Positions 20,835-54,194 of a DNA stretch of 64,000 nt are shown here, one piece after another. The notes under the pieces are model-generated. The model was given only the letters and a program-made list of their open reading frames with translations, was not told the DNA's origin and ran no database searches. The position numbers were made by a program, and so were the translations under genes. The number at the start of each line of letters is the position of its first letter. Positions within the stretch are counted from its first letter, which is position 1. Source of the stretch: an uncultured Bifidobacteriaceae bacterium. Its GTDB lineage: Bacteria > Acidobacteriota > Vicinamibacteria > Vicinamibacterales > JAMQPK01. The stretch is from positions 12,755 to 76,754 of the forward strand of contig CAYHHH010000002.1 in assembly GCA_964356125.1 (NCBI GenBank), read 5' to 3'.

Positions 20835-20839
20835 CGCTC

Positions 20840-24250: not shown

Positions 24251-24384
24251 CTCCTCCTGTCCTTCCTGACGAGGGTTGCGTCAACGCGGCGAACGGACCG
24301 GCCGTCGTTAGGCGTCGTCGGTTTTATATCATGAAACTATGTTGTGTGCGGTGCACACTATAACCGCAGTCACACCCCTCGAAG

Positions 24385-24401
24385 TTGTGACAAATTGTGA
24401 C
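24385..24401 (+). promoter_or_regulatory. Candidate direct-repeat operator TTGTGAC-AAA-TTGTGAC
   Basis: Perfect 7-bp direct repeat with 10-bp phasing, 81 nt upstream of ATG 24483. Confidence 0.4.
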
Positions 24402-24407
24402 GGGTGG

Positions 24408-24424
24408 CTATCGATTATCGATAG
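24408..24424. promoter_or_regulatory. Perfect 17-bp palindrome CTATCGAT-T-ATCGATAG
   Basis: Checked base by base. Contains the 12-mer TATCGATTATCG that also occurs at 4259-4270. Lies in the divergent region between receptor 24250(-) and gene 24483(+). Confidence 0.4.
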
Positions 24425-24482
24425 GTCACCCGGCCGGTGTGTTACCATCGCCGCTTCACACCAGGCCGGAGGAATAGCACTC

Positions 24483-29550: not shown

Positions 29551-31551
29551 CTATTTCCTTGTCCGCGGCTGGCCGAGAAACGCGAATGCGCCCAGCTCGC
29601 CCGCCGTCACCAGGTCCATCACGCCGTCCTTGTTCAGATCCACGGCGAGCACCTGCGAGCCTGCGCCAGACTGGTTGTGCACCAGCTCGGGCACGAATTC
29701 GGCGCCGCCCGGCGCGTTCTTGTTGCGAACCGTGCGGTAGACGTACAGCACCGGTGCGCCGTAGGGATCGGGATCGGCGTAACTCTCGTTGTGCGAGAAG
29801 AACCGTTTGCCGATGACGAAGTCGGTCGTACCGTCGCCGTTCATGTCGGCGCACGTCGAGCCGTGGGGTTCGGAGAAGACCACGCCGCCTGCGTTCTTCG
29901 TGGCGAAGTTGTCCGAAATCATGTGCCGCACGAAGGAGATCTGTCCGCCGGCATCGCGCTTCTGCTCGAACCACGCGAGCCCGAACACGTGCGCCTGCAG
30001 CGACGTCACGACGTCGTTGAGTTTGTCGCCGTTGACGTCGTACACGCACATCTCGGCGCCACCGGGCGCGCCGCGGCCGTTTTGACGCCCGAAGGCCTGG
30101 GGATGGTAGATCCACGGACTCTCGCCTTTCGACTGTCGACTTGCGCCTTGCGACTGTGCGGGCTGTTCCCACCAGCCGTACACGTTCAGGATGTCGACGC
30201 GTCCATCGCCGTTGACGTCGCCCGCGCCGATGCCATGCGCCGCGTAGGTGCCGGGCTCGCCAACTTGCGTCGACAGCCACGGCCCGGTGGGGTTGGCTGG
30301 ATCGGGCTTCGCCCATCGCACGGCGCCCGCGCTCGCGTACACCAGGTCGGGCTTGCCGTCCGCATCGACGTCCTTCATCACCGACACTTCCGAGACGTTG
30401 GGGGCAGGCGGCACGACGCCCGCGTACGAGTCCCATCGTCTCGGCTCGCCCTTCGGATTCACGTACACCCGGCTGCCCGACGTCGACGCGAGCAGCACGT
30501 CGGGCCACCCGTCTCCGGTAAAGTCGCCGGCGAACTCGAGCCAGTTCGACGAGAAGTTCGTCGAGGGGTTGGTGGAGAGCGCCATGTAGAACTCGCGCAC
30601 CTTCGTGAAATCGGGCCCCAGGAAAATGAACGGTCCCGACACGATGTCGATGTTGCCGTCGCGATCGAAATCCGCGGCGCCCGACGCGAAGGAATAGTAA
30701 AAAGGCGTGAGCCGCAACATGCGGTAGTTGGGCGATAGCTCTTCTTTGACGACTCGTTTGAGGCTCAGATCGCGATACGACACATCGCGGAAATGCACCG
30801 CACCCGAGCCGCCGACATAGATGGCTATAGGGCCGAACGTGCCGAGATCATCGTCGGCCGCGCCGCCGCCGTTGGCGGAAGTGTTCACCCACGGCCGCAG
30901 AATGTTCGCGTCGATCACGACGTCGACATCATTCCAGTCGTTCGGTTTGAGTGCGGATGGCGCCATCAGATCGGGGAGCGTTGCGCCGGATGGCAGCGCA
31001 CCGCGCCCGCGTCCGCCGACCTGCGCGCCGGCGGCGCCCGGCGCCCCGCGTCCGGCCCCGCGACCTGCACCACCGCCACGCGCGGCGGCTGCGGCCGCGG
31101 CTTCAGCCGCCGATGGTGCAACGCGAATCAACCCGCCGCCTGCACGAAGACGCTCTCGTGTCAGGATCGTGCCGTTCGCGTCGAGCGTGACGGCGTAGCC
31201 GCCGACCTCGCCTTCGTCCAGTGAGAGGAACACGCCTTTCATTCCCGTCGCCGTCTTCTCCGCGCGCAGCAGCACACCTGTCCGGCACTCGCCCACGCAC
31301 TTGAAGTCGGCGCCGAACTCGACATCCTGAAACGATGTGTCGAGCACGAGCCAGCCGCCGTCTGCCGACTTCGGTGTGCCAACCAATTCGCCGTCGATCG
31401 CTTTCCACTCGGCGGCGCCGAGCACATGCCAGCCGGCGAGCGTGCTTCCCTTGAACGTCCAGTCTGGAACGAACGTGCCGCGCGTGCCGCGAAGAGGCAC
31501 ACCTGTGAGCGCGCCGAGTATCGCGACGAGGCCGAGTAATCGACGCGTCAT
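29551..31551 (-). CDS. Exported DUF1080 + FG-GAP/VCBS repeat protein (paralogue 3)
   Basis: Start trimmed to ATG 31551 (MTRRLLGLVAILGALTGVPLRG) so it does not overlap gene 31589..32596. Collinear with paralogues 1 and 2. Confidence 0.9.
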   Translation of the reverse strand: MTRRLLGLVAILGALTGVPLRGTRGTFVPDWTFKGSTLAGWHVLGAAEWKAIDGELVGTPKSADGGWLVLDTSFQDVEFGADFKCVGECRTGVLLRAEKTATGMKGVFLSLDEGEVGGYAVTLDANGTILTRERLRAGGGLIRVAPSAAEAAAAAAARGGGAGRGAGRGAPGAAGAQVGGRGRGALPSGATLPDLMAPSALKPNDWNDVDVVIDANILRPWVNTSANGGGAADDDLGTFGPIAIYVGGSGAVHFRDVSYRDLSLKRVVKEELSPNYRMLRLTPFYYSFASGAADFDRDGNIDIVSGPFIFLGPDFTKVREFYMALSTNPSTNFSSNWLEFAGDFTGDGWPDVLLASTSGSRVYVNPKGEPRRWDSYAGVVPPAPNVSEVSVMKDVDADGKPDLVYASAGAVRWAKPDPANPTGPWLSTQVGEPGTYAAHGIGAGDVNGDGRVDILNVYGWWEQPAQSQGASRQSKGESPWIYHPQAFGRQNGRGAPGGAEMCVYDVNGDKLNDVVTSLQAHVFGLAWFEQKRDAGGQISFVRHMISDNFATKNAGGVVFSEPHGSTCADMNGDGTTDFVIGKRFFSHNESYADPDPYGAPVLYVYRTVRNKNAPGGAEFVPELVHNQSGAGSQVLAVDLNKDGVMDLVTAGELGAFAFLGQPRTRK
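30117..30158 (-). repeat. Degenerate heptanucleotide array (GACTCTC GCCTTTC GACTGTC GACTTGC GCCTTGC GACTGTG) inside the CDS
   Basis: Direct reading. Encodes AQSQGASRQSKGES at the same WWEQP...WIYHP loop. Confidence 0.75.
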
Positions 31552-31588
31552 GTGTGCCTCCACAAAAAGTGACGAACGCGGCCGTGCG

Positions 31589-32596
31589 TTATTTTGCGGC
31601 GACCCGCAGCTTCGACGCCATCGCACACTCCGCCATCACGGTGAAGTAGCGCTGCACGGCATCGGCGCCGATGATGAACGGATGGTTTTCGCCAGGCTGG
31701 CGCGGTGCCGCGAGCAGCCGGGCCTTCGTGTAGGCGCCATCATATTCGCTGTGATTCGAGAGCAGGACGCTCGCCCCCGCATCGGCTGCCGCCTTCGCGA
31801 TCTTGCGCTGCGAGGCGATGTACTCGTCCCACCGCGCGCCGTCTGTACCGAACGCGCCGGTGAGCGTGCCGCCCGAATAGGCGACCATCACGGTCCTGCC
31901 CTGGTCCTTCACGGGGAAGACATACGACAGCGTTCCAGGTGAGTGGCCCGGCGTCGCGACGATCTCCACAGTGGTGTCTCCCAGCGTCATCTTCCTGCCA
32001 TCCGATCCGACCGAGATGTCCTTCCTCGGTACTCCGCCCGCGGCGGTGGGCGGGCGGCTGAGTGTCGCCTCCCAGTCTGCTGCGCCCATCACGACTTGCG
32101 CGGTGTAGCGCTCCTGCAGCTCTGCAGCTCCCTGGTCGTGATCGCCGTGTGCATGGCTGATGATCACGTACTTGATGCCTTGCGGATTCAGCTTGAGCGC
32201 AGTCAGGCCGTCGATAATCTCCGGCCGTGTCGCCCAGGCGAAATTGGTATCGATGATGATGATGCCATCGCTCGTCTGGAGCGCCCACGTGGAATGCTGG
32301 CGTGTGCCCAGCCAGTAGAGGTTATCGAACACCTTGAAGGGCGGGGCATACCAGTTGGCACGGTCCGGTGTTTGAGGTGCGCCGGTTCCACGCGCCGCGC
32401 CGGCTCCGCGTGCGCCGCCGCCGCGCGGAGCGCTCGGGAGGCAGAGATTGATGAATGTGTTCCGGTGCTCCATTCCTGCAGCGGCCCTGGCCGTCGCGAT
32501 GTGGGCGTCAATCTGGCTGGGCGGCGCCTGCGCCAGGACAACGGTGCCGAGGAGCATGGCCGACAGTGAGGAAATCACGACAGACGTGCGCTTCAC
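31589..32596 (-). CDS. Exported subclass-B3-like metallo-beta-lactamase-fold hydrolase
   Basis: 335 aa with signal MKRTSVVISSLSAMLLGTVVLAQA. PFKVFDNLYWLGT, IIIDTNF, ISHAHGDHDQGAAELQ (HxHxDH) and TPGHSPGTL are collinear with B3 MBL motifs. Confidence 0.75.
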   Translation of the reverse strand: MKRTSVVISSLSAMLLGTVVLAQAPPSQIDAHIATARAAAGMEHRNTFINLCLPSAPRGGGARGAGAARGTGAPQTPDRANWYAPPFKVFDNLYWLGTRQHSTWALQTSDGIIIIDTNFAWATRPEIIDGLTALKLNPQGIKYVIISHAHGDHDQGAAELQERYTAQVVMGAADWEATLSRPPTAAGGVPRKDISVGSDGRKMTLGDTTVEIVATPGHSPGTLSYVFPVKDQGRTVMVAYSGGTLTGAFGTDGARWDEYIASQRKIAKAAADAGASVLLSNHSEYDGAYTKARLLAAPRQPGENHPFIIGADAVQRYFTVMAECAMASKLRVAAK

Positions 32597-39565: not shown

Positions 39566-39596
39566 TGTGCGAAACTCGAGTCCATCAGGAGCCACA

Positions 39597-39819
39597 ATGA
39601 CGCGGAAGGTGTTTGCCGGATTCGCGGTTTGCGCAATCAGCCGCGTGAGCACAGCAAGCCATCTGGCCCAAGGTGATCGAGCGCGACGCCGTCATCAACT
39701 GGATTCGCAAGCTGCCGGGCGTGGCGGACGCGGCGCCCGTGCGCAGCAGCGCCGGACGCGTGACGGCGCGCCGCCTGAATCGCGTCGAGTACAACTCAGA
39801 AAGGAACTCACACGTATGA
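39597..39819 (+). pseudogene. Possible frameshifted gene remnant in the receptor-cupin spacer
   Basis: AGGAG-N5-ATG at 39597 opens MTRKVFAGFAVCAISRVSTAS. A different frame (39649-39819, GC3-rich) reads AQQAIWPKVIERDAVINWIRKLPGVADAAPVRSSAGRVTARRLNRVEYNSERNSHV. Its TGA overlaps ATG 39816 (ATGA). Confidence 0.25.
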
Positions 39820-40811
39820 ATCGCGCACGGCGTGCCTGGAGGTTCGTTCGCATCCTGTTCGCGTGCATCGGCGCACTTGGATCGCTTCCCGCTCGACTGG
39901 GCGCCCAGGCGCCATCGGCCCCGACATTCCCCAACTCGATCACGGTCTCGTCAGGCCCGAAGACGAATCTGTTTCCGCACCTCATGACGAAAGCCGAAGT
40001 CCTGGCGGCGCTGGCGCAGGTGAAGGATTCGCAGGACCTCGTGGTGAAAAACAATTTCGCGCTCACATTGCGCGCGGCGAGCAATACGACGAAGCTGCCC
40101 TGGAAGATACACACCGAGGCCGATGAAATCTGGTTTGTCTACAAAGGGTCGGCCAGGGTGAGCCTGGCGCCGTTCTCGTTGCAGGTGGGCATCACGCCTC
40201 CAGGCACCACCCATGATGTGGGCGAAGGGGCCATCGTGAACGTCCCGCGCGGCATGGCGTATCGCATCATGCCCGCCGGCCGTTTCGAGTATGTGGCGGT
40301 ACGGAAATTTGCGATCCAGCCTCCTCCTGCCGGCCGGGCTGGCGGCCCGCCTCCGGGGCCACCGCCGACCGTGGTGACCCAAGCGCAACTCGATGAGTTC
40401 TACGCCACCGCTACGAGGAGCGTGGTCCTCTATCCCGGAATCACTCGCAATCTCTATAACGGCGGCCCCGACGGCGTGAAATGGGGTCCGTTCGATGGCG
40501 GTCCCGTCGAAAACCATGAAATCGACGAGCACCTCTATGTGGTGACGTATGGCACGGGCAAGGCGTATCTGGACGGGTTCATCCCCAACGGGCACTGGGA
40601 CACCCGCGGCGTGATGGGAGTCCCGCTCCCGCAGGGTTCAACTGAGTACACGATCAACCCGGGCGACCTCCTGTTCGTCTTCCGTAATACGCTGCACTAC
40701 ATCGTTCCCATCCCCGCCAGGGGCAAGGTCGGCTACCTCCTTGTCGATCTACCGGAGAGCGAGGCGTTCTGGCCGAAGTCGATTGTGCCGAATGGCACCG
40801 GTGCGTACTAG
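39816..40811 (+). CDS. Exported bicupin protein (paralogue A)
   Basis: Start trimmed to ATG 39816, giving MNRARRAWRFVRILFACIGALGSLPARLGAQA. Cupin-like HTEADEIWFVYKGSARV...VNVPRGMAYRI, and a second HEIDEHLYVVTYGTGKAYL...GDLLFVFRNTLHYI. Confidence 0.8.
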   Translation: MNRARRAWRFVRILFACIGALGSLPARLGAQAPSAPTFPNSITVSSGPKTNLFPHLMTKAEVLAALAQVKDSQDLVVKNNFALTLRAASNTTKLPWKIHTEADEIWFVYKGSARVSLAPFSLQVGITPPGTTHDVGEGAIVNVPRGMAYRIMPAGRFEYVAVRKFAIQPPPAGRAGGPPPGPPPTVVTQAQLDEFYATATRSVVLYPGITRNLYNGGPDGVKWGPFDGGPVENHEIDEHLYVVTYGTGKAYLDGFIPNGHWDTRGVMGVPLPQGSTEYTINPGDLLFVFRNTLHYIVPIPARGKVGYLLVDLPESEAFWPKSIVPNGTGAY

Positions 40812-42017: not shown

Positions 42018-43313
42018 TCAGGAAAGCCAGGTGCCGAGCAGGGAAGGAATCCGATCGAGCGGCACGGGTTCTGACTGCCCGAGCAGAGGAAATTCGGGAG
42101 GGGCAATGACGTAGGCGCTCGGCGTGGCCTCCGCAAGGCAGACGCACGCCGCGGTCTCTTGGTACTCGGGAAAGCGCCCCGCCGCCAGCCCCATGTAATA
42201 CGCCATGATCTGCGCGTCCAGCGCGCTGCCGGGCAAATCCTCTTCTGCGGGCAGCGGGTTCGCTCTTTCCTGATTCTCGAAGATCGCCACGCTTGTGAAC
42301 GGTTTGGGTTTGGCCCGCGTGCCCAGATGGGCGACGAGCACCGAGGGTCGAGCGCGTCGAAACGCCTCGGTGGCCGCCCACTCCACAAAAGCATTGCTGA
42401 ACACGAGAGCGCCGTTGCCGCTCAGAAACAGGGATCGGACGAATTCCCGCACTTCCGGCCGCGCGGCAACCTCCGGCGGACACCACCGGCCAACGTCCGC
42501 CTCTCGCAGGGCGGCATACACCGCATCGGCATCCGCCAAGTCTCTCCGGATCGCGTTGATGCGCTCCAGGAATCCTTCGCGAAACGGCTTGAGGCGCTCA
42601 AAGCTCAGAAACGTCGCGCGTGGGGGCTTTGCCCCGCCCATGAGGTCTTCCAAACGGCGTCCGATCTCCGTTCCAGCCTCGATGACCCAGCAGTCGTCCG
42701 CCGCGCGATCGTGGCGGCTGACAAAATCCTCGAGGAACGTGCGCCGCTTCGCGCCCCCTTCCCGACCAGGAGGGCCAAAGAGCACATCGAGCATCGGTTG
42801 TCCAACACCGGCAGGCGGCAACTCGATGGCCATCTCCCTGCCCATGCCCTGCCACCGTGCCCAGATGGTTCTGGAATCCAGCGGGAGTCGGGCCGGGAAG
42901 ATCAGCAGGATCAACCGGCGACCCACAAAACGACCGTCCCGCGAGAGGGACTCCCGATCCATCTCGTCGAACACTTTCTGAACCTCACCGCGCCATTCCT
43001 GGTAATAGGGCGAGCGGGCGAGCAGCGACGCGTTCTCGATGGTCTGCACGTCGGTGGAGAACTTCCAGCGGCTCACGTCCATTCGCATCTCGATGTCGCG
43101 CACGCCGCGGAAGAGCGTCGCGAACTGCTCGCGGCTCAGGCTCCCCAGATAGCGGAGCATGCGCACCAGGTAGCGCTGCTCGTGGGGAAACGCGAGTTCC
43201 CACTCCCGGATCTGCTGGTTCACGAAAGGCAGGAACGTGATGGGCAAGCGCGCTAACACGTCTCCCTGGACGGCTGCCTGGAGCCCCGTCGGCACGTTGG
43301 TCTGCGCGCTCAC
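42018..43313 (-). CDS. Hypothetical cytoplasmic protein, 431 aa, no family recognised
   Basis: GTG start 16 nt after the RidA stop, with AAGGTG upstream. Non-repetitive, coding-like composition with no signal peptide. Last gene of a three-gene minus-strand unit. Confidence 0.75.
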   Translation of the reverse strand: MSAQTNVPTGLQAAVQGDVLARLPITFLPFVNQQIREWELAFPHEQRYLVRMLRYLGSLSREQFATLFRGVRDIEMRMDVSRWKFSTDVQTIENASLLARSPYYQEWRGEVQKVFDEMDRESLSRDGRFVGRRLILLIFPARLPLDSRTIWARWQGMGREMAIELPPAGVGQPMLDVLFGPPGREGGAKRRTFLEDFVSRHDRAADDCWVIEAGTEIGRRLEDLMGGAKPPRATFLSFERLKPFREGFLERINAIRRDLADADAVYAALREADVGRWCPPEVAARPEVREFVRSLFLSGNGALVFSNAFVEWAATEAFRRARPSVLVAHLGTRAKPKPFTSVAIFENQERANPLPAEEDLPGSALDAQIMAYYMGLAAGRFPEYQETAACVCLAEATPSAYVIAPPEFPLLGQSEPVPLDRIPSLLGTWLS

Positions 43314-43329
43314 GCCGACACCTTGAAGA

Positions 43330-43815
43330 TCATGTTCGTTTCCGCCCTCGCAGATGTCTCGGCGTCGCCCGGCCGGACTCGAAGATCGCGATGGCTTCTA
43401 TTTCGACGAGCAGGTCCGCCCGGCACAGAATCACCTGGATTCCCGTCGAAGCCGGCAGCGGATTCAATTCCTGCTCCTTGAAGAACCGGGTCCGCATCTC
43501 ATTGAAAGCCGCGTAATCGCGCTCCATGTCGCGCAGGTAGCAGGTCGTGCGCACCACGTCCTTCCACGTTGCGCCCTCGGCGCCGAGCAGCGCGGTGATG
43601 TTCTCGTAGGTCCTCCGGGTCTGGGCGCGAACGTCTCCAGCGTGGACAGTACGACCATGCTCGTCCACGCTCGCCGTCCCGGAAATGAAGACGATCGCGA
43701 TGCCTTTGATGTCGATGCGCAGTCCTCGGGAGAAGGAAGAGGGGTGCGGATAGTCGGGGGCTTCATTCAGCGCCTGCGGCGCGCTGATCGCCCTCTTCGA
43801 GGCCGGCTTCCCCAT
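43330..43815 (-). CDS. RidA/YjgF/TdcF-family (endoribonuclease L-PSP) protein
   Basis: Start trimmed to ATG 43815, giving MGKPASKRAI.... FISGTASVDEHGRTVHAGDVRAQTRRTYENITALL...DVVRTTCYLRDM...PASTGIQV...LVEIEAIA is typical of RidA. The ATG shares one base with the upstream TGA (TGATG). Confidence 0.85.
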   Translation of the reverse strand: MGKPASKRAISAPQALNEAPDYPHPSSFSRGLRIDIKGIAIVFISGTASVDEHGRTVHAGDVRAQTRRTYENITALLGAEGATWKDVVRTTCYLRDMERDYAAFNEMRTRFFKEQELNPLPASTGIQVILCRADLLVEIEAIAIFESGRATPRHLRGRKRT

Positions 43816-44987
43816 CACGCTTTCAACTCTGCCAGCCTGGCGCCTCTCGAATCGGGCGCATTGCACCCCAGCACGTGAGCGAGCGTGGAACACACGTCGA
43901 TGTGTTGGACGGGCCGTTCGACGAGCTGTGGCCGATCGACTGCGGCACCCAGGCACATCATCCACGTGGTCCGGCAGGACGGCTCGGGGCTGCGATGGTT
44001 CAGAAACCCGTTGGTGGAAGAGCCATCGGGATCGCGTCCGAACTCCGGCAGAACGATCATCGTGGTCTGGCCCCGGTACTGCGGGTTCGCATTCACTTCC
44101 CGCCAGAGTTCGTACACAAGCCTGTCGCCCGTCCTGATTCCGGCAAGGTGAAGAGAGTAAGACCCGAAATGGGCCGACTCGACGTCGGAGAAGATCACAA
44201 CGAGAAGCTTCGGAGCGAATTTCCGCATGATTTCGCGGCTGACGAAGTAGGTCAACTCGTCGCCGGAGGTCGGGCCGTTCCCCTGGGTGAAGCTCGCCAG
44301 CGCATCCTGGACAGCCTGCCTGGCGCGCGGCTCCAGACGGTCTGCCGCGTCAAAGACCGTCCAACCCAGCCCCTCGTAGTTGCTTTCCTGGAGCATCGCC
44401 TCGAGCTCGGCCTGAACCTTGGCGCGGTCGGCCATGTTGCGGCTTCGCCCTTCCCACAGCGATTTTTCGACAGCGTTGATCATCAACTGCTTGGGAAACA
44501 CGACGTTTGCCCCATAGCTGGGCCCGAAGTCTCGCACCGAGCTTGCGCCGATCTGGCTCGTGAGCGCTTTGTTGCTGGCCACCACCCACACGTCGCTCTG
44601 CGGGATGCCAAGGTCCTTTCGGAAGTACTCGAAGAGCGTGGGAGAGTTCGGGGCTACCTTCCCCCAGTCGTCCACTCTCTGCCAATTGCCAGACAGGATG
44701 CTCGATACGGCGTTGAAGTGTGCGGTGACGCCTTCGTTCCGGGTGTTCAGGTAGAAAAGCGACTGGGGTGACAGATCTCGCACCAGGTGAGGGATGTTCT
44801 CGATGCCTTCTGGCGAAAACGTCTCCTGCTTGCGCACTCCGCCGAAGATGGTGAGGACGACTTTTTGCCCCGCTCCGCCAGCCTTGTGCCCTTGGCGCGC
44901 CAACGCACGGCATGGCAGCAGCAGACTGTCGGCCACCAGCATGCCAGCAGCCTGAAGGAACAGACGCTTTGAGATGTCCATGGCCAA
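43815..44987 (-). CDS. Exported alkaline-phosphatase-superfamily protein (DUF1501/sulfatase-like)
   Basis: 390 aa. N-terminus MAMDISKRLFLQAAGMLVADSLLLPCRALA (Tat-like with KR). C-terminal ...HIDVCSTLAHVLGC resembles the DUF1501/sulfatase C-terminus. The family call is tentative. Confidence 0.6.
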   Translation of the reverse strand: MAMDISKRLFLQAAGMLVADSLLLPCRALARQGHKAGGAGQKVVLTIFGGVRKQETFSPEGIENIPHLVRDLSPQSLFYLNTRNEGVTAHFNAVSSILSGNWQRVDDWGKVAPNSPTLFEYFRKDLGIPQSDVWVVASNKALTSQIGASSVRDFGPSYGANVVFPKQLMINAVEKSLWEGRSRNMADRAKVQAELEAMLQESNYEGLGWTVFDAADRLEPRARQAVQDALASFTQGNGPTSGDELTYFVSREIMRKFAPKLLVVIFSDVESAHFGSYSLHLAGIRTGDRLVYELWREVNANPQYRGQTTMIVLPEFGRDPDGSSTNGFLNHRSPEPSCRTTWMMCLGAAVDRPQLVERPVQHIDVCSTLAHVLGCNAPDSRGARLAELKA

Positions 44988-45150
44988 AGGCCCCTAACCG
45001 GCGGTTGCGTGGACGATTGTATGAACGTGTCGCGTGCGGGCGATATGATGGCGGTCATAGGCGGCGCCATGCGCCCATGATATTCCGTGCACCGCCGTGC
45101 GAACAACATCGGATTAGCGCTTGGCGGGTCACTCTCGAAGGAGGCACTGC

Positions 45151-47259
45151 GTGGGCGGGTGGAAACCGACCGGACGAGCGGACGGCTGGAGCGCGCGCCT
45201 GTCCCGCGTCGCCGGCACCGGCCTCGTGTTCCTGAGCGCGAGCGGCCTGGCCATCACGTTCGGCCCGTTCCATCCCGTCGTGCAATGGGCCCTGTTGGTG
45301 CACGCGGCAGTCGGAGCGATCCTCGCCGCGCCGCTGGCGTGGTACACGGCGGTGCACTGGCTCGACTATCGCCGCTTCCAGATGAGCCACATCGTGCTGC
45401 TCGGCTACGTCGCCGCGGTGGCGCTCGTCGCGTGCGTCGCCTCCGGACTCGTCGTGACATGGCAGGGCATCTTCGGCATCCGCACGTCGTGGGCGTGGCG
45501 ACAGGTGCATCTCGTCTCGACTTTCGTCATGCTTGGGGCCGCCTTGCCGCACGTCGTCCTGCTGGCCGTGCGAGTCTGGCGCGCGCTACTCACGCCGCGG
45601 CGGTACACGTGGCAGGTGCTCGGGGCGTCCGCCGCGCTCACCGCCGTGACCGCTGGCCTTCCCGGCATCTACGCCGGCACGCGCTACGTCAACGAGTTCC
45701 CGTCCGACTACGTCTTCCTCCACGGCAAGGATCGCCCGTTCGCGCCAAGCCTCGCGAAGACGGCGACGGGCGGCGCCTACGACGCCCGGTCGCTCGCCGG
45801 CTCTGAGGGCTGCGGGACGGCCGGCTGCCACCGCCAGATCGTCGAGGAGTGGCGACCGAGTGCCCACAGGTACGCCGCGATGGACCCGCTCTTCCAGGGC
45901 ATCCAAACCGTCATGGCGAAGCAGAACGGCGCGGAATCGACACGTTACTGCGGCGGCTGCCACGATCCCATCTCTCTCTTCTCTGGCACCAAGAACATCT
46001 TCGTGAAGGACCTCACGAATCTGCTGGGCTATCAGGAGGGCGTCTCCTGCCTGGCGTGCCACGGCATCCGGAAGACCGACGTGAAGGGCAATGCCGATTT
46101 CACCGTGGCGCAACCGCGCGAGTACCTCTGGCAGTGGAACGACACCGGTGCCCCGCGGGTGGCTCGCGATTTCCTGATCCGTACCTATCCCGACGAGCAC
46201 GCCGGGCTCAGCAAGCGGCTGTTCAAATCGCCTGAGTACTGCGCGGCCTGCCACAAACAGTTCATCGACGAGCAGGTGAACAGGGTTGGGTGGGTGCAGC
46301 TGCAGAACCAGTACGACAACTGGGCCAACAGCCACTGGAACACGAAGGGCGATCCCCGCAAGACGGTCGAGTGCCGTGAGTGCCATATGCCGCTGGTGGA
46401 GTCGACCGATCCGGCGGCGGGTGACGCCAGCGACTACAACCGCCAACCCGGTGACCGCAAACACCGAAGCCATCGGTTCATCGCGTCGAACCAGCTCGTG
46501 CCCGCGCTGCTCAAGCTGCCTGGATGGCAGGAGCAGGTCCGCCTGACGGAGCAGTGGATGCAGGGTGAGCGGGAGGTGCCGGAGATCGCCTCGAAGTGGG
46601 CGCGCGGTCCCATCGTAACGATAGGGCTCGAGCTCGGGACCGCACGGCCCGGCGCGGCATCTGTTCCGCTGCGCGTCGTGATGGCCTCGAATAAGGTCGG
46701 GCACGACTATCCGACCGGCCCGCTCGATATCATCCAGAGCTGGGTGGAGATCTCTGTGACCGACGGCCAGAAGCGCACCGTGTTCTCGTCGGGCGCGCGC
46801 GACGACCGGCATTTCCTCGCAGCGGGGACGACGTTGTTCAAAGCCGAGCCGGTCGATCAGCATGGCAATCTCATCGATCGCCACAATCTCTGGGAGATGG
46901 TGGGCGTGCGCTTCCGGCGCTCGCTGTTCCCTGGCTACTCCGACACGTTCGAGTACCAAGTGCCGTGTCTGCTCCCCGGCGAGTCCGCGGCCGCGCCGCG
47001 GAAGGACGGCGCGAGCCAGCCCGACCACCGCGACTTCAGCATGCCGCTCCGGACCGGGCGCTACCGCGTCGAAGCCGCCCTCAATTACCGCAAGGTCGAT
47101 CAGTTCCTGGTCAACTACCTGCTGGGCGAGCAGTCGGGAGTCACCGCGCCAGTCGTCCAGATTGCGCGCGTCGGGGCGTGGCTCGATGTGGCGCCGCCCA
47201 CGCGGGAAGGCCGGCCCGTGGTCCGCCTGGTCCACGACGCCACCCGGGGAGGTAAATGA
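45151..47259 (+). CDS. Membrane-anchored pentaheme c-type cytochrome with N-terminal 4-TM His-containing (b-type/DUF4405-like) domain
   Basis: GTG 45151 lies 6 nt after GAAGGAGG. Four hydrophobic helices carry His residues (FGPFHPVVQWALLVHAAVG, WRQVHLVSTFVMLGAALPHVV). Five CxxCH motifs: CGTAGCH, CGGCH, CLACH, CAACH, CRECH. Confidence 0.8.
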   Translation: MGGWKPTGRADGWSARLSRVAGTGLVFLSASGLAITFGPFHPVVQWALLVHAAVGAILAAPLAWYTAVHWLDYRRFQMSHIVLLGYVAAVALVACVASGLVVTWQGIFGIRTSWAWRQVHLVSTFVMLGAALPHVVLLAVRVWRALLTPRRYTWQVLGASAALTAVTAGLPGIYAGTRYVNEFPSDYVFLHGKDRPFAPSLAKTATGGAYDARSLAGSEGCGTAGCHRQIVEEWRPSAHRYAAMDPLFQGIQTVMAKQNGAESTRYCGGCHDPISLFSGTKNIFVKDLTNLLGYQEGVSCLACHGIRKTDVKGNADFTVAQPREYLWQWNDTGAPRVARDFLIRTYPDEHAGLSKRLFKSPEYCAACHKQFIDEQVNRVGWVQLQNQYDNWANSHWNTKGDPRKTVECRECHMPLVESTDPAAGDASDYNRQPGDRKHRSHRFIASNQLVPALLKLPGWQEQVRLTEQWMQGEREVPEIASKWARGPIVTIGLELGTARPGAASVPLRVVMASNKVGHDYPTGPLDIIQSWVEISVTDGQKRTVFSSGARDDRHFLAAGTTLFKAEPVDQHGNLIDRHNLWEMVGVRFRRSLFPGYSDTFEYQVPCLLPGESAAAPRKDGASQPDHRDFSMPLRTGRYRVEAALNYRKVDQFLVNYLLGEQSGVTAPVVQIARVGAWLDVAPPTREGRPVVRLVHDATRGGK

Positions 47260-49865
47260 GCGCGATTCGGGGCCTGAGCCGTCGTCGGCGGCAGTTGCTG
47301 GCCACCGCGGTCACGCTCATCGCTGCCATCGCGGTCGCGGCAACGATGCTGGTTCGGCACTACCGTTCCGGCGCTGCGGCCACGTACCGACCAGGCGAAG
47401 AGAACGCCGACATCACCAACTCGCTGGCGCGAGGGTTGCCCGCCGACGCGCCCATGCCGCGCTTCGTCGACGTCACGGAGGAGGCGGGACTCAGCGGATT
47501 CCGCGTCTTCCAGGGCGCCCGCGCATCCCAGTTGCCCGAGGACATGGGCTCGGGCGCCGCGTGGGGGGACTTCGACAACGACGGCGACGACGACCTGTTC
47601 CTGGTGAGCGCGGGGGCCGCGCTGGCGGCGCCGCCCGGCGAGCGCGCCCCCAGCCAGCTGTTCGAGAATGTCGAGGATGGGCGTTTCCGGCTCGTGGCCG
47701 ATTTCCCGGACACCCGCATCATCGGGATGGGCGCGGCATGGGGCGACGTGAATGGCGATGGCTGGCTCGATCTCGTCGTTACGGGCTACGGCACCATTCT
47801 GCTGTTCAGGAATACGAGCGGCCACTTTGCCGTGGATGTGCGGTTCGCGTCGCCGGCGGGCTTCTGGACGGGTGCGGCCTTTGGCGACTACGACCGGGAC
47901 GGCGACCTCGACCTGTATGTCTGCGGCTACGTGCAGTACCGCGAGGAGCCGGCCAACGGGTCGCGCCGGTCGCAGCACTACGGCGCGTCGGTGCCCTACA
48001 CGCTCAACCCGGCTTCGTACGAGCCCGAGCGCAATCTGCTCTTCCGAAACAACGGCAACGGCGTTTTCCGTGAAGTGGCGCACGCCCTCGGTGTCGACAA
48101 CCCCGAAGGCCGTAGCATGAGCGCCGTATGGCACGACTTCGACGGCGACGGCTGGCTCGATTTGTACGTGGCCAACGACATCTCGGACAACGTCATGTAC
48201 CGCAACGTTCGGGGACGGTTCGAGGACATCAGCCACGCGGCGTGGGTGGCTGACTACAGGGGTGCGATGGGGTTGGCCGTCGGCGACTGGAATCAGGACG
48301 GCGACGACGACCTGTTTGTGACCCATTGGGTGGCGCAGGAGAACGCGCTCTTCGATTCGCTGCTCGTCGACGCCGGCCGTCAACCGGCGGCGGGCCCCGC
48401 GGTCGGCGGTCAGGGTTCGGCATCACCGCTCCGGTTCGTCGACGCGGCCGACGCGGTGGGCCTCGGGCAGATCGCGCTCCCGATGGTCGGCTGGGGCGCC
48501 GAATTCGCCGACTTCGACGCTGACGGCTGGCTGGATCTCGTCGTCGCCAACGGCAGCACGTTCGAGACCGACACCGAGCCACGGCAGCTCAAGCCGCAGC
48601 TGCCGTTCCTCTTCTGGAACCGCCGTGGCGAACACTTCTACGACCTGGCGCCGCTCACGCCGGCGCTCGCGCGGCCTTCGGTGGCGCGCGGCCTGGCCGT
48701 CGCGGACTACGACCACGATGGCGATCTCGACATCCTCATGGTCCGGCGCGACGCCGGCGTGCAGTTGCTCAGCAACGGCATGCAGCGGGGGCATTGGCTG
48801 AAGCTGCAGCTGCGCAGCCGCGTGCCGGGCCGGCCGGAGGCATATGGCCGCGGGCTGGGTGCACAGGCCATCGCGTACCTGGGCCCAACCGAGGTCCGTC
48901 GCGCCGTGAGCCCCGCGTCGTACCTGTCACAGAGCAGCCCGGTGCTGCACTTCGGCCTCGGCGACAAGACCGGCATCGATCGGCTGGATATCAGGTGGGC
49001 GAGCGGCGCGACCGCCACATTCGGTGCGCTCGCGGCTGACCGCACCTGGGAGATCACTGAAGGCCAGGATGCCCCGCGGGAGGTGCCGCGCACGGCGACG
49101 TCGACCGCCTCACGGCGGATGCCGTCGATTCCCGCCGACGACAGGAGCCGAACCGTCGCTTTCTGGGCGAAGCAGCGCGAGGCCATGCAGGCATTGAAGG
49201 TGGACCGTGACGTCGCGCGAGCGGCGGTGCTGCTTCGCGAGGCGATCGCCCTCGATCCTGCGCACGAGGATACTCGCTACTACCTCGCCAGCTCCCTGGC
49301 GACGCTGGGCGACGTGCCAGGTGCGCTCGCCGAACTGGAGACCCTGACCCGGTTGAACCCGAGCAGCCATCGCGCGCTCGCGCGCTGGGGTGCGTTGCGT
49401 GCGCAGACGGCCCGCGGGACGGCGGATCTCTTCGCCGCCGAGACATCCCTGCAGCGGGCTCACGATCTGAACCCCGAAGAAACGGGTGCGCTGCTGGCTC
49501 TTGGCGAGATCTCACTGCTGCTGGGCGACCGCACGCGTGCCGAGCAACGGCTCGGCGCCGTGTGCGCGGCCAACCCCCGCGCGGCGGGGGGGTTGTTCCT
49601 GCTCGGGTACCTGCACTGGACGCGCGGCGACGAGCAGCATGCGACGGAACTGCTGGCTCGGACGCGCGCGGCGCTCGGGAACGACTGGAAGCCGCGCGGC
49701 TCGACCTCCGAGGGCGACGTCGCGCGGAAGACCCACGAGGACACGACGCCGCTGGCGCCGTTCCTCGATGGCTGGAACGACAGCCGACGCCCGGCGGACG
49801 CCTACCGGGATCTGGATCGGCACCTGCGTCGCGTGTCAGATGGAGAGTCGCGACGTCCTAGATGA
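47256..49865 (+). CDS. CRTAC1-family protein: TM anchor + FG-GAP/VCBS repeats + ASPIC/UnbV domain + C-terminal TPR
   Basis: ATGA overlap with the upstream cytochrome, with GGGGAGG upstream. Repeated GDFDNDGDDDL, GDVNGDGWLDL, GDYDRDGDLDL, HDFDGDGWLDL and ADFDADGWLDL. UnbV-like RRAVSPASYLSQSSPVLHFGLGD. TPR-like C-terminus. Confidence 0.88.
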   Translation: MSAIRGLSRRRRQLLATAVTLIAAIAVAATMLVRHYRSGAAATYRPGEENADITNSLARGLPADAPMPRFVDVTEEAGLSGFRVFQGARASQLPEDMGSGAAWGDFDNDGDDDLFLVSAGAALAAPPGERAPSQLFENVEDGRFRLVADFPDTRIIGMGAAWGDVNGDGWLDLVVTGYGTILLFRNTSGHFAVDVRFASPAGFWTGAAFGDYDRDGDLDLYVCGYVQYREEPANGSRRSQHYGASVPYTLNPASYEPERNLLFRNNGNGVFREVAHALGVDNPEGRSMSAVWHDFDGDGWLDLYVANDISDNVMYRNVRGRFEDISHAAWVADYRGAMGLAVGDWNQDGDDDLFVTHWVAQENALFDSLLVDAGRQPAAGPAVGGQGSASPLRFVDAADAVGLGQIALPMVGWGAEFADFDADGWLDLVVANGSTFETDTEPRQLKPQLPFLFWNRRGEHFYDLAPLTPALARPSVARGLAVADYDHDGDLDILMVRRDAGVQLLSNGMQRGHWLKLQLRSRVPGRPEAYGRGLGAQAIAYLGPTEVRRAVSPASYLSQSSPVLHFGLGDKTGIDRLDIRWASGATATFGALAADRTWEITEGQDAPREVPRTATSTASRRMPSIPADDRSRTVAFWAKQREAMQALKVDRDVARAAVLLREAIALDPAHEDTRYYLASSLATLGDVPGALAELETLTRLNPSSHRALARWGALRAQTARGTADLFAAETSLQRAHDLNPEETGALLALGEISLLLGDRTRAEQRLGAVCAANPRAAGGLFLLGYLHWTRGDEQHATELLARTRAALGNDWKPRGSTSEGDVARKTHEDTTPLAPFLDGWNDSRRPADAYRDLDRHLRRVSDGESRRPR

Positions 49866-49973
49866 TGGGACGCCCACGCAGTCGCGCCGCCGGCGCGCGT
49901 GCTCAAGCCCTGGGGCCGCCACCATTTGGCGCGCGGTTCGGGCTTTAGTGGGAACCCCTGCTATTATCTCGGC

Positions 49974-50852
49974 GTGAATAAAGCCTCTTCGACGCGCAAG
50001 ACACGTCCCGAGCCGCCGGCCTCCCGCTATCGGGTGCAGGTGCTCGATCGAACCATCGCGGTCTTGCAGGCGGTCGCCGATTCCGAAACGGATCTGCCGG
50101 CCGCCGACATCGCGCGGCAGCTTCGCCTGCACAAGAGCACGGTGCACCGGCTGCTGGTCGTCCTCGAGTCGTACCGGCTCATCAAGAAAGGCCCGGAGGG
50201 CGCCTACGGCCTGGGCACGCGGCTGATTGAGCTGGGCGAGTGCGCGATCGCCCGCCTCAAGCTCAGCGAATACGCCGAGCCGCATCTGCGCACGCTCGCC
50301 GACCGGACCGGGGAGGGCGCGCACGTCACGATCCTGAACGGCACCGAGCTGCTGTCGATCGCGCACGTCGAGGGGCGATGGGCCCTGCATTCGCTCACGA
50401 GAACCGGCCAGCGCACGGAGATTCATTCCACCGCCGCGGGAAAAGCCGTGCTCGCGTTCCTGTCAGCAGAGGCGTGCGACGACCTGCTTGCGCGGCTGAC
50501 GCTGAAGCGCAAGACGCGTCGCACGATCGTGAAGCCGTCGGCGATGAAGCTGGAGCTGATGCGCGTGCGCAACCTCGGGTACGCGGTCGACGACGAGGAA
50601 TTCGAGGAGGGGCTGCGGTGCGTCAGCGCCCCGATTTTCGATCACCGCGGCCACGTGGTCGCGTCGCTCAGCATGGCCGCGCCGGTCTTTCGTCTGCGCA
50701 AGGAGCAGGTGCCGCAGGTGGCCAGGCTCGTCGTCGCCGCCGCGCAGGGGCTGTCGGACGACCTGGGGCGCCGGAACCCCAACCAAGGGAAGCGCGGCGC
50801 CGTGGCCAGGGTGGCGCCGGCGCGCGCGAAAGGGCGCCGTCTCACATCGTGA
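49974..50852 (+). CDS. IclR-family transcriptional regulator
   Basis: YRVQVLDRTIAVLQAVADSETDLPAADIARQLRLHKSTVHRLLVVLESYRLI (wHTH), followed by an IclR effector domain (GYAVDDEEFEEGLRCVSAPIFD). Start uncertain: GTG 49974 (6 nt after TATTAT, possibly leaderless) or GTG 49899. Confidence 0.85.
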   Translation: MNKASSTRKTRPEPPASRYRVQVLDRTIAVLQAVADSETDLPAADIARQLRLHKSTVHRLLVVLESYRLIKKGPEGAYGLGTRLIELGECAIARLKLSEYAEPHLRTLADRTGEGAHVTILNGTELLSIAHVEGRWALHSLTRTGQRTEIHSTAAGKAVLAFLSAEACDDLLARLTLKRKTRRTIVKPSAMKLELMRVRNLGYAVDDEEFEEGLRCVSAPIFDHRGHVVASLSMAAPVFRLRKEQVPQVARLVVAAAQGLSDDLGRRNPNQGKRGAVARVAPARAKGRRLTS

Positions 50853-52442: not shown

Positions 52443-54194
52443 ATGAACACGCGGTTCTGGGTTCTTGGTTCGGCGGTTCTGGGGTCCTGGTTCTGGGTTC
52501 ATGGTGCGAGTGTGTTCGCACAACTCGGTCCGGCGCGGGCCCGCACGCAAACGGCCGCGTACGAGTTGACCGATGGCCGCACGATCGAGGGCATCCCTCT
52601 CAATCACGAGCGCGCCGACGATGTGCAGCTGCGCACGGCGGCGGGCCCGGTTCTCCTGCTCAGGAAATCGGGCGATCGGTATCGCGTGGTCACCTCCACG
52701 GTCGACTGGCCGAGCTACGACGGCTCGACAACCGGTAATCGCTATACCGCGCTGACCCGGATCGACAAATCGAATGTCGGACGGCTGGCGCCCAGGTGGA
52801 TCTACGCGATACCGACATCAGTGCGTCTGCAAACGACGCCGGTGGTCGTGGGCGGCTTGATGTATGTCACCAGCGCCAACGAATGCTATGCGCTCGACGC
52901 CGGCAACGGCCGCGAGGTCTGGCGCTTTCAGCGGCCGCGCACGAAAGGCCTCGTCGGCAACGCGGCCGGCGGTATCAATCGCGGCGTTGCGATCGCGGGC
53001 GAGCGTCTGTTCATGGTCACCGACCACGCGCATCTGATCGCGCTGAATCGGTTTACGGGCGAGCTGCTGTGGGACATGGTGATGGCCGACTGGCAGCAGA
53101 ACTACAACGCCACGTCGGCGCCCTTGATTGTCGGAGATTTGGTGATCGCCGGCACCGCCGGCGGCGAGCAGGGCGTGCGCGGGTTTCTCGCGGCCTACGA
53201 TCAGGCGACCGGACGCGAAGCGTGGCGATTCTGGACGGTGCCGAAGCCAGGTGAACCTGGATCGGAAACATGGAAGGGCACAGGCATCGAACATCCGGGC
53301 GGCGTCACCTGGATGACCGGCGTGTACGATCCAGCGCTCGACCTCGTCTACTGGACGACCGGCAATCCCAGTCCGGATTACAACGGCGACGAGCGATTGG
53401 GCGACAATCTGTACGCGAGCTCGGTCGTCGCGCTCGATGCGCGCAGCGGCCGCTTGAAGTGGCACTTCCAGTTCACGCCACACAACGTGTGGGATTGGGA
53501 CGCACAGCAGCCCACCGTGCTCGTCGATACGACATGGGAAGGGCGCCCGCGAAAGCTTCTTGTTCAGGCGAGCCGCAACGGGTTCTTCTACGTGCTCGAC
53601 CGCACCGACGGGAAATTTCTGCTCGCGAAGCCGTTCGTCAACAACCTGACCTGGGCGCGCGAAATCGGATCGGGCGGCCGGCCGGTGCTGGTGCCGGGGC
53701 AGGAGCCCAGTCCCGAAGGCACGCGCGTCTGTCCGTCGGCGCACGGCGCGGCGAACTGGTACTCGACGTCATACAGCCCGCAGACCGGGCTGTATTACGT
53801 GCAGACCCTCGAGAACTGCAATGTGTTCGTCAAGTTCGTCAGCGAATGGGCCGCGGGAAACGCGTACTGGGGCGGCTCCACGCGGCAGGCCGAAGATGCA
53901 CCGAATCAGAAAATTCTTCGCGCCATCGACGTGAAGACCGGGAAGATCGCGTGGGAACTGCCGCAGACGGGCCCCGGGGCCGCGCGCGGCGGAACGCTGG
54001 CCACGGCGAGCGGCCTGCTGTTCTTCTGCGACGACCAGGATCGATTTGCCGCCGTCGACGCGGCAACCGGAAAACCGCTCTGGCAATTCGGGATGAACAG
54101 CGTGTGGCGGGCGTCACCGATGACGTACGAGTTCGACGGAAGGCAGCACATCGCCATCGCATCGGGGTCGAACATCATCGCGTTTGGTTTGTGA
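52443..54194 (+). CDS. PQQ-type quinoprotein alcohol-dehydrogenase-family beta-propeller (no heme domain)
   Basis: 583 aa. NRYTALTRIDKSNVGRLAPRWIY..LQTTPVVVGGLMYVTSANECYALDAGNGREVWRF and later blades are typical of the methanol/ethanol DH family. The N-terminal hydrophobic core is encoded by a heptamer array. Confidence 0.85.
   Translation: MNTRFWVLGSAVLGSWFWVHGASVFAQLGPARARTQTAAYELTDGRTIEGIPLNHERADDVQLRTAAGPVLLLRKSGDRYRVVTSTVDWPSYDGSTTGNRYTALTRIDKSNVGRLAPRWIYAIPTSVRLQTTPVVVGGLMYVTSANECYALDAGNGREVWRFQRPRTKGLVGNAAGGINRGVAIAGERLFMVTDHAHLIALNRFTGELLWDMVMADWQQNYNATSAPLIVGDLVIAGTAGGEQGVRGFLAAYDQATGREAWRFWTVPKPGEPGSETWKGTGIEHPGGVTWMTGVYDPALDLVYWTTGNPSPDYNGDERLGDNLYASSVVALDARSGRLKWHFQFTPHNVWDWDAQQPTVLVDTTWEGRPRKLLVQASRNGFFYVLDRTDGKFLLAKPFVNNLTWAREIGSGGRPVLVPGQEPSPEGTRVCPSAHGAANWYSTSYSPQTGLYYVQTLENCNVFVKFVSEWAAGNAYWGGSTRQAEDAPNQKILRAIDVKTGKIAWELPQTGPGAARGGTLATASGLLFFCDDQDRFAAVDAATGKPLWQFGMNSVWRASPMTYEFDGRQHIAIASGSNIIAFGL
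52453..52509 (+). repeat. Heptanucleotide tandem array (GGTTCTG x ~8, one 1-nt interruption)
   Basis: GGTTCTG GGTTCTT GGTTCGG c GGTTCTG GGGTCCT GGTTCTG GGTTCAT GGTGCGA. It lies within codons 4-23 of ORF 52443. Confidence 0.9.

Follow-up and report, generated by a model that had tools for sequence, protein, structure and literature searches.

What does a membrane-bound multiheme cytochrome do beside a protein of the CRTAC1 type? The question is raised by two adjacent genes, here called A and B, on the forward strand of a 64,000-nucleotide (nt) stretch of contig CAYHHH010000002.1 (assembly GCA_964356125.1), which we refer to as the window. Bacterial CRTAC1/ASPIC-UnbV proteins are numerous, and a literature search found no study of their function; in one paper, ASPIC/UnbV is named as a paralogue family of the Solibacter genome. 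A search pairing CRTAC1, UnbV, FG-GAP, or VCBS with multiheme or cytochrome returned only a paper on homologues of the anammox hydrazine synthase (HZS), and the A-B pair was not described in that literature. Here, we find that the linkage of A and B is close to absolute, in both directions and across at least six bacterial phyla. One FG-GAP lineage is thus locked to a cytochrome of predicted b/c type, which turns a vague annotation into a bench-testable hypothesis and gives uncharacterised bacterial CRTAC1-like proteins a first testable context, namely a redox one.

A translationally coupled gene pair

45138–45145, forward strand: ribosome-binding site of gene A (AAGGAGGC), read from the sequence, 5 nt before the GTG at 45151
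45151–47259, forward strand: gene A, a 702-aa membrane cytochrome with a DUF4405-like module of five transmembrane (TM) helices, a pentaheme c domain, and an immunoglobulin (Ig)-like beta-sandwich (open reading frame [ORF], homologues, AlphaFold2 model)
47256–47259, forward strand: ATGA overlap of the A stop and the B start (ATG at 47256–47258, TGA at 47257–47259; sequence)
47256–49865, forward strand: gene B, an 869-aa anchored FG-GAP propeller/UnbV_ASPIC/TPR protein (Pfam, orthologues)

The mechanical ORF list begins gene A at a TTG at 45121. We accepted the GTG at 45151, as did an initial annotation made from the sequence alone, because AAGGAGG lies ahead of this codon and a public collection already lists the identical 702-aa product. 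GGGGAGG is found just upstream of the ATG of B, and the four-nucleotide overlap between the genes, also noted in the initial annotation, is one of translational coupling. Close spacing recurs elsewhere: among 75 loci from other genomes, the distance from A stop to B start is −4 in 19 and −10 in 5, and it is at most 15 nt in about 48. A promoter and terminator scan around the A-B operon gave no signal above shuffled sequences. Public annotations of A-type proteins read only "multiheme c-type cytochrome" or "hypothetical protein."

Linkage of A and B across genomes

Scanning one genome per GTDB species for relatives of gene A yielded at least 557 loci, and the best 80 of these were taken for neighbourhood analysis; they span Acidobacteriota, Verrucomicrobiota, Planctomycetota, Poribacteria, Gemmatimonadota, Myxococcota, and other phyla. 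Contigs stop within 400 bp of A in 5 loci, leaving 75 with more than 400 bp after it. In every one of the 75, a full-length B orthologue lies directly 3′ of A on the same strand, with 48–83% identity over residues 1–860, TPR region included. For the reverse direction, the B alignment was searched against metagenome contigs, and A was directly upstream in 67 of the 68 loci that had at least 300 bp of upstream sequence. The initial annotation had suspected that FG-GAP/UnbV genes travel with multiheme cytochromes, a suspicion that a lack of linkage between the two families would undercut; for this pair, the counts bear it out. In addition, the pairwise distance matrices of A and B correlate with r = 0.84, a value reached by none of 2,000 permutations, and this is what co-inheritance of the pair as a unit would produce.

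Homologues of A number more than 3,300 at 60–90% identity and are spread over phyla, the closest coming from Acidobacteria, Vicinamibacterales, and Luteitalea metagenome-assembled genomes (MAGs). About 60% identity is conserved between phyla, which suggests that the function of the module is constrained and important. Its hosts belong to dominant yet poorly understood phyla of soil and water. Three module-bearing MAGs (L007, L009, and L012) are titled Bifidobacterium sp. or Akkermansia muciniphila while carrying a locus of verrucomicrobial type; these titles look wrong, and the source records are probably mislabelled taxonomically.

Clustering all ORFs of the 80 A loci revealed no other conserved neighbour, the next cluster being present in only 8 loci. 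In the window, an IclR-family regulator (49899–50852, forward strand) begins 33 nt past B in the same orientation; its position next to the pair is not conserved elsewhere. On the other side, an ORF at 43815–44987 (reverse strand) is oriented divergently to gene A and has a Tat-like signal at its start (MAMDISKRLFLQAAG...). Rrf2-family regulator genes lie beside the module in 7 loci, drawn from three subfamilies, out of about 170 (L028, L060, L066, L072, and L142 among close orthologues; L086 and L169 among distant ones), a count on which Rrf2 was rejected as a conserved partner. Besides the Rrf2 gene, L169 carries a hemerythrin/DUF2249 gene and another A-like cytochrome. Such neighbours may hint at nitric oxide (NO), iron, or redox control in some lineages.

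A predicted di-heme b module in the membrane

45187–45669, forward strand: five TM helices, residues 13–173, predicted di-heme-b module (AlphaFold2 helices, DUF4405 similarity)
45301–45303, forward strand: H51, TM2, periplasmic side, predicted heme-b ligand (invariant in 63/63 orthologues and 27/27 diverse sequences)
45355–45357, forward strand: H69, TM2, cytoplasmic side, predicted heme-b ligand (invariant)
45508–45510, forward strand: H120, TM4, periplasmic side, predicted heme-b ligand (invariant)
45550–45552, forward strand: H134, TM4, cytoplasmic side, predicted heme-b ligand (invariant)

The AlphaFold2 model of A (pLDDT 82, pTM 0.79) places the TM helices, a helical heme domain, and a beta-sandwich in that order. 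Two independent runs gave five helices (residues 13–37, 42–73, 80–108, 114–145, and 149–173, with pLDDT above 90), one more than the initial annotation had counted. The N-terminus and the loops at residues 74–79 and 141–152 are basic. Together with the five helices, this puts the c-heme domain in the periplasm, which is where c-heme attachment takes place; it is the odd number of helices, five and not four, that allows a periplasmic heme domain to go with a cytoplasmic N-terminus.

Conservation was read from alignments of 63 orthologues from genomes, a diverse set of 27 sequences, and a set of 22; in the 27-sequence TM alignment, identity falls to about 16–25% over the TM segment. H51, H69, H120, and H134 are invariant in all 63 orthologues and all 27 diverse sequences, from 90% to about 20% identity, and with G99 they are the only invariant non-Met residues of the TM region in the diverse set. 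H41 and H80 vary among the 63 orthologues. The TM histidines highlighted in the initial annotation, whose loss in homologues would have told against its b-type reading, are therefore kept as far as these four are concerned, while H41 and H80 drop out. Two histidines each on TM2 and TM4, paired toward either membrane face, form the pattern of a putative membrane-spanning di-heme b module, and A is predicted to carry two b-hemes.

The proposed kinship with DUF4405 is also supported, at the level of a weak resemblance. The isolated TM domain matches DUF4405 (PF14358) at 18.3 bits (E 0.0034), short of the gathering score of 26.7, and 11 of the 27 relatives also match (E up to 0.1, best E 1.6e-5). 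We therefore treat the module as DUF4405-like and not as a proven member. Heme b binding by way of four central histidines was demonstrated for one DUF4405 protein. Its class, described as having six TM helices, is structurally related to MsrQ-like and PepSY-like cytochromes, and a role in moving electrons through the cytoplasmic membrane has been proposed for it (PMC11334425). What A shares with these proteins is four conserved central histidines, two per helix on two helices, along with the weak but recurrent profile matches. It differs in its five helices and sub-threshold score, and in being fused to a c-type multiheme domain where DUF4405-type proteins have flavinylated or molybdenum partners; no apbE gene lies nearby. 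A Foldseek search of the PDB with a TM-only model (pLDDT 84) gave no significant match, the top-ranked nonsignificant ones (best E 0.69) being the di-heme b proteins SpNOX, cytochrome b561, Dcytb, STEAP2, and the Hyd-1 cytochrome b.

The linker from TM5 to heme 1 (residues 196–217, 45736–45800) carries the motif RPFAPSLA, whose F197 and P199 remain unchanged even where identity is down to 25%. This linker may form the junction of the outer b-heme with c-heme 1 or may be part of a quinone site.

The periplasmic part of A

45811–45831, forward strand: heme c site 1, C221-GTAG-C226-H227 (CX4CH; Cys and His invariant)
45949–45963, forward strand: heme c site 2, CGGCH, within the most conserved stretch (ESTRYCGGCHDPISLFSG; motif scan, conservation)
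46048–46062, forward strand: heme c site 3, CLACH (motif scan)
46240–46254, forward strand: heme c site 4, CAACH (motif scan)
46372–46386, forward strand: heme c site 5, CRECH, followed by invariant M413 (motif scan, conservation)
46606–47205, forward strand: C-terminal Ig-like beta-sandwich, about residues 486–685, with invariant VGH518xxPxGPLD and H578 (AlphaFold2 strands 489–680, 5ZE8 fold match, conservation)

A regular-expression scan found CxxCH at residues 267, 300, 364, and 408 and CX4CH (CGTAGCH) at residue 221, so that four of the five CxxCH motifs initially annotated stand as such and the fifth is a variant. Relatives at 25–35% identity have a plain CxxCH at this position, and the CX4CH is thus a two-residue insertion in a genuine heme site. 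All five motifs are invariant in the 63 orthologues and in relatives down to 25% identity. With five heme motifs and a periplasmic placement, A is a multiheme cytochrome c; Pfam itself recognises only a Cytochrome_C554-type segment (residues 235–315; 32.1 bits versus a cutoff of 20.8).

The conserved histidines outside the heme motifs bear on whether A is a wire or an enzyme. Orthologues keep H239, H350, H441, H518, and H578 in addition to H438. In the wide family, H239, H350, H441, and H518 are invariant distal histidines; H578, kept in 63/63 orthologues, is absent from 4 members of the 22-sequence alignment. No conserved Cys, selenocysteine (Sec), Lys, or Tyr was seen outside the heme motifs in the alignments of orthologues and relatives. 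Since the orthologue histidines suffice for five bis-His c-hemes and no catalytic Cys, Lys, or Tyr is present, a role for A as the wire and for B as the substrate holder is slightly favoured.

The sole significant match of A to a solved structure is the pentaheme cytochrome c552 of Thermochromatium tepidum (5ZE8; Foldseek E 8e-11, probability 1.00, target TM-score 0.61; profile hidden Markov model E 4.9e-5), which likewise has a five-heme domain followed by an Ig-like domain. That protein is soluble, periplasmic, and of low potential, has no TM b-heme module and no reported propeller partner, and is only 15% identical to A, which carries the 5-TM module. The polysulfide reductase MccSep/ExtKL of Geobacter and PtdA belong to the same pentaheme plus beta-sandwich class, as their published comparison with 5ZE8 indicates (bioRxiv 10.1101/2025.11.18.688581 and 10.1101/2023.11.21.568154). 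A differs from MccSep/ExtKL in having no conserved Sec or Cys active-site residue near heme 2, in being membrane anchored through its putative b-heme module, and in the absence of porin, decaheme, or ExtHIJ genes around it; its score against the NCBIfam ExtKL model is 18.2 bits versus a cutoff of 250.

Anatomy of gene B

47295–47354, forward strand: N-terminal hydrophobic anchor or signal (LLATAVTLIAAIAVAATMLV), RRRR ahead (sequence)
47463–48830, forward strand: seven-blade FG-GAP beta-propeller with seven Dx[DN]x[DN]G Ca-binding-type motifs at residues 105, 164, 211, 294, 344, 419, and 484 (Pfam FG-GAP_3, motif scan, conservation)
48852–49049, forward strand: UnbV_ASPIC domain, residues 533–598 (Pfam, 56.2 bits)
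49173–49685, forward strand: TPR region, about residues 640–810 (Pfam TPR_19/TPR_16, PDB TPR matches, conservation)

The product of B is, as first annotated, an 869-aa FG-GAP/UnbV/TPR protein with a membrane anchor, an assignment supported by Pfam, the motif scan, and the N-terminal hydrophobic segment. Pfam scores all exceed their cutoffs (FG-GAP_3, 151 bits, E 1e-44; FG-GAP, 60 bits; UnbV_ASPIC, 56 bits versus 23.4), TPR families are matched over residues 650–810, and the seven Dx[DN]x[DN]G motifs fall one per blade. The N-terminus consists of RRRR and a 20-residue hydrophobic segment; such a segment is present in 58 of 63 orthologues, and because it contains no Cys, B is not a lipoprotein. 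The tail beyond the TPRs is also conserved (residues 811–869, 49686–49865: W811-P813-G815...E819-G820-D821-V822...H827).

Residues 466–590 match a chain of human CRTAC1 (9ETN) with an E of 2.5e-11, and no match was obtained to any CRTAC1-specific NCBIfam model. An FG-GAP propeller and a UnbV_ASPIC domain are what B shares with vertebrate CRTAC1 (ASPIC). The vertebrate protein is a secreted component of the extracellular matrix with an EGF-like C-terminus and no known redox partner, whereas B is membrane anchored, has TPRs toward its C-terminus, and shares translational coupling with a cytochrome gene.

Distant relatives and a mobile alpha-solenoid

How old is the partnership? An exhaustive HMMER search gave 401 clusters of A relatives at 50% identity (E < 1e-30), and full-length relatives at 25–45% identity keep the TM histidines and all five heme sites. 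The neighbourhoods of nine distant relatives were looked up.

P0162: immediately preceded by an FG-GAP/UnbV/HEAT gene of 896 aa
P0170 (Thaumasiovibrio subtropicus, a cultured vibrio; WP_087017246.1): 1,255-aa FG-GAP/HEAT gene upstream
P0194 (cytochrome with a fused TPR region): TPR-less FG-GAP/UnbV gene of 733 aa, located 4 nt upstream
P0189 (TPR fused): flanked on either side by FG-GAP genes
P0123: overlaps a downstream B homologue (44% identity)
P0153: FG-GAP gene 21 nt downstream
P0182 (TPR fused): convergent FG-GAP-like gene
P0175: contig end, uninformative
P0141: hemerythrin/DUF2249, Rrf2, and a second A-like gene; FG-GAP not seen

FG-GAP genes thus adjoin seven of the nine (P0162, P0170, P0194, P0123, P0182, P0153, and P0189), and the adjacency persists at 25–35% identity even with inverted gene order. 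Because relatives at 25–45% identity still sit beside FG-GAP genes, the partnership of cytochrome, propeller, and alpha-solenoid must be much older than the orthologue pair. A cultured host is available for one such distant member in T. subtropicus.

The solenoid moves between the partners. It is a TPR region on B in our pair, a TPR region on the cytochrome in P0194 and P0189 (whose FG-GAP partners have none), and a HEAT region on the propeller protein in P0162 and P0170. That it may sit on either protein favours a physical complex. The TPRs of B and those of the fused cytochromes show only generic similarity (E 1e-5 and 0.26), and on this ground a single transfer of the domain cannot be claimed. 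The TPR-fused cytochrome relatives (P0182, P0189, P0193, P0194, and P0159) all end in a conserved HxH tail (HVHR, HVHE, HEH, or HFH).

Proposed mechanism and alternatives

We lean, a little beyond an even chance, toward a reading in which A and B form a two-subunit, inner-membrane-anchored, periplasm-facing redox complex wired to the quinone pool. The five-helix module of A would bind two b-hemes stacked across the membrane, H51 and H120 holding the periplasm-side heme and H69 and H134 the cytoplasm-side one. With no domain of A reaching into the cytoplasm, its most likely partner on that side would be membrane quinone or quinol. Electrons would pass on through the five c-hemes of the T. tepidum c552-type domain, backed by the Ig-like domain, which may contribute conserved histidines; the chain would end at a site built with, or presented by, the seven-blade Ca-binding-type propeller of B. 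The alpha-solenoid, here of TPR type, may dock parts of the complex or recruit a third component. MsrQ, PepSY-like, and DUF4405-type modules send electrons outward, while those of HydC/FdnI and CybB type take them inward; because the modules resembling that of A work outward, we lean slightly to outward flow, which would make the complex a quinol-driven periplasmic reductase.

A further step, which we offer tentatively as possible, is that the pair represents a widespread and hitherto unrecognised class of membrane-bound redox or respiratory enzymes in which the propeller, of integrin type, is the substrate-binding or catalytic subunit and either feeds or is fed by a seven-heme wire (two b plus five c) to the quinone pool. 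The building blocks are all of known kinds; what appears to be new, and would be unprecedented, is an obligatory propeller partner of a quinone-linked b/c cytochrome module. A quinone-linked oxidoreductase of this sort would add an unrecognised branch to the electron-transport chains of the host phyla. If the propeller is the catalytic or substrate subunit, CRTAC1/UnbV proteins paired with A-type cytochromes would acquire a redox function, and there would be a new point of electron entry or exit in abundant soil phyla (Acidobacteriota, Verrucomicrobiota, and Planctomycetota).

Several observations weigh against this reading. The TM module scores below the DUF4405 gathering threshold (18.3 versus 26.7 bits), has five helices instead of the six described for that family, and found no significant PDB match with the TM-only model (best E 0.69); moreover, H51 and H69 are 18 residues apart, compared with the 13–14 typical of di-heme helices. 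In B, conservation extends to no Cys and to just three His, each in a different domain, and no recognisable cofactor site was found. The solenoid may have been acquired more than once, given its generic TPR similarity to the fused cytochromes, and the divergent paralogue P0141 shows no FG-GAP neighbour in the 4.6 kb of sequence available.

Among other explanations, a catalytic heme within A deserves the most careful weighing. A alone might be an enzyme with one catalytic c-heme, as in cytochrome c554, NrfA, or MccSep, acting on NO, peroxide, or a sulfur or nitrogen oxyanion, with B as a nonredox accessory that stabilises A, gates access to it, or tethers it. We judge this unlikely, and yet it stays a serious rival because only four distal histidines (H239, H350, H441, and H518) are universal in the wide family for five hemes. 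A is also better conserved than B (mean identity, 62% versus 55%); the most conserved stretch surrounds heme 2, and in the related MccSep fold heme 2 is the one at the active site (bioRxiv 10.1101/2025.11.18.688581); and Rrf2-type regulators occur near the module at 7 loci from three subfamilies, with hemerythrin/DUF2249 beside P0141. However, H578, present in all 63 orthologues and in most distant relatives, can give a fifth distal ligand, so that all five hemes may be bis-His; A contains no conserved Cys, Sec, Lys, or Tyr outside its heme motifs; and a full-length, solenoid-bearing B in every genome would be left unexplained.

Three further alternatives seem less probable still. It is quite improbable that A is the inner-membrane quinol dehydrogenase of an extracellular electron transfer chain of the CbcL/ImcH/CymA kind, with B as a periplasm-spanning scaffold to the outer membrane, even though the combination of a b-heme TM module with a periplasmic multiheme chain is functionally analogous to that of Geobacter CbcL, TPR and HEAT repeats are typical docking modules, and A gives weak Pfam and NCBIfam matches to MtrC/OmcA-type and ExtKL models. 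These matches reflect generic heme motifs and lie far below cutoffs. Across about 160 loci, conserved neighbours include no porin, no outer-membrane cytochrome, and no periplasmic shuttle; the term electron conduit used in the initial annotation, if taken to mean extracellular electron transfer, is likewise unsupported. Judging by MAG names, the hosts are mostly soil, freshwater, and marine lineages (Acidobacteriota, Verrucomicrobiota, and Planctomycetota), most of which, to our knowledge, are not known for metal respiration. CbcL, ImcH, and CymA do share with A the principle of a membrane module that exchanges electrons with quinones and is joined to a periplasmic multiheme c chain, but no homology to A was detected; CbcL has a HydC/FdnI-type b module and nine c-hemes, and we know of no obligatory FG-GAP propeller partner for any of the three. 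The chances are slimmer again that B works solely in the assembly or maturation of A, for instance as an apocytochrome chaperone with TPRs on the model of CcmI/CycH. The unusual CX4CH site and a match of the B TPR region to the CcmH/CycH TPR model (E 2.9e-5, 24.4 bits) would fit such a role, but that score is below the cutoff of 42 and TPR families cross-match, relatives with a normal CxxCH at site 1 still have an FG-GAP partner, and in some subfamilies the partner has no TPR or has HEAT repeats instead; we also know of no precedent for a 600-residue Ca-type propeller as a heme chaperone. Finally, adjacency might reflect only co-regulation or chance hitch-hiking of unrelated functions. We give this very little credence in light of the two-way adjacency (75/75 and 67/68) over phyla whose contexts are otherwise unrelated, the conserved translational coupling, the adjacency at 25–35% identity despite inverted gene order, and the exchange of the solenoid domain between the two partners.

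Other genes in the window

The reach of the linkage is narrower than the initial annotation had proposed. It had invoked a repeated association of FG-GAP and multiheme genes at this locus, with a second TPR-multiheme protein at 18786 and three more FG-GAP proteins nearby. The gene at 18786–20834 (reverse strand) encodes an octaheme c-type cytochrome with eight CxxCH motifs, a signal peptide, and a helical N-terminal region of about 270 aa; it has no adjoining FG-GAP gene and was rejected as a paralogue of A (best blastp E 0.006, heme motifs only). Only two further FG-GAP genes were found in the window, tandem paralogues at 27577–29550 and 29551–31626 (both reverse strand) in which a 3-keto-disaccharide-hydrolase-like (DUF1080-type) domain is fused to FG-GAP repeats, without UnbV and without an adjoining cytochrome. 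These other cytochrome and FG-GAP genes are thus unrelated and not adjacent to each other; the window itself contains no repeated association, and it is other genomes that supply the evidence of linkage. A redox link for the CRTAC1 family as a whole is likewise not supported, because linkage is seen only for FG-GAP proteins adjoining A-family cytochromes and others lack one, those in the window included. Independently of this pair, a bacterial FG-GAP gene of the CRTAC1 family lies inside HZS-like clusters, with heme-c protein genes on both sides of it (PMC12758564); the heme proteins there are homologues of the hydrazine synthase alpha and beta-gamma subunits, not of A type, and have no TM b-heme module.

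The octaheme gene sits 6 nt downstream of a TonB-dependent receptor gene (20840–24250, reverse strand), and 18786–24250 may form a receptor and cytochrome operon. Over the window, G+C content is 62–69%, and four TonB-dependent receptors (CarboxypepD_reg plus OMP_b-brl_4 domains) and several pyrroloquinoline quinone (PQQ) dehydrogenases are encoded. Such gene content suggests an acidobacterial source, and the closest homologues of A point the same way. ORFs of 390–434 aa at 43815–44987 (reverse), 42018–43313 (reverse), 39567–40811 (forward), and 24339–25643 (forward) had no Pfam match at E 1e-4. PQQ-type propeller dehydrogenases lie at 1782–4109, 25653–27602, and 52443–54194 (all forward strand), two of them with a c-type cytochrome domain, and the window also contains MR_MLE, gluconolactonase-like, arabinofuranosidase, lactate permease, and major facilitator superfamily (MFS) transporter genes. 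The combination of PQQ dehydrogenases, sugar-acid genes, and MFS transporters suggests a neighbourhood for periplasmic sugar or alcohol oxidation.

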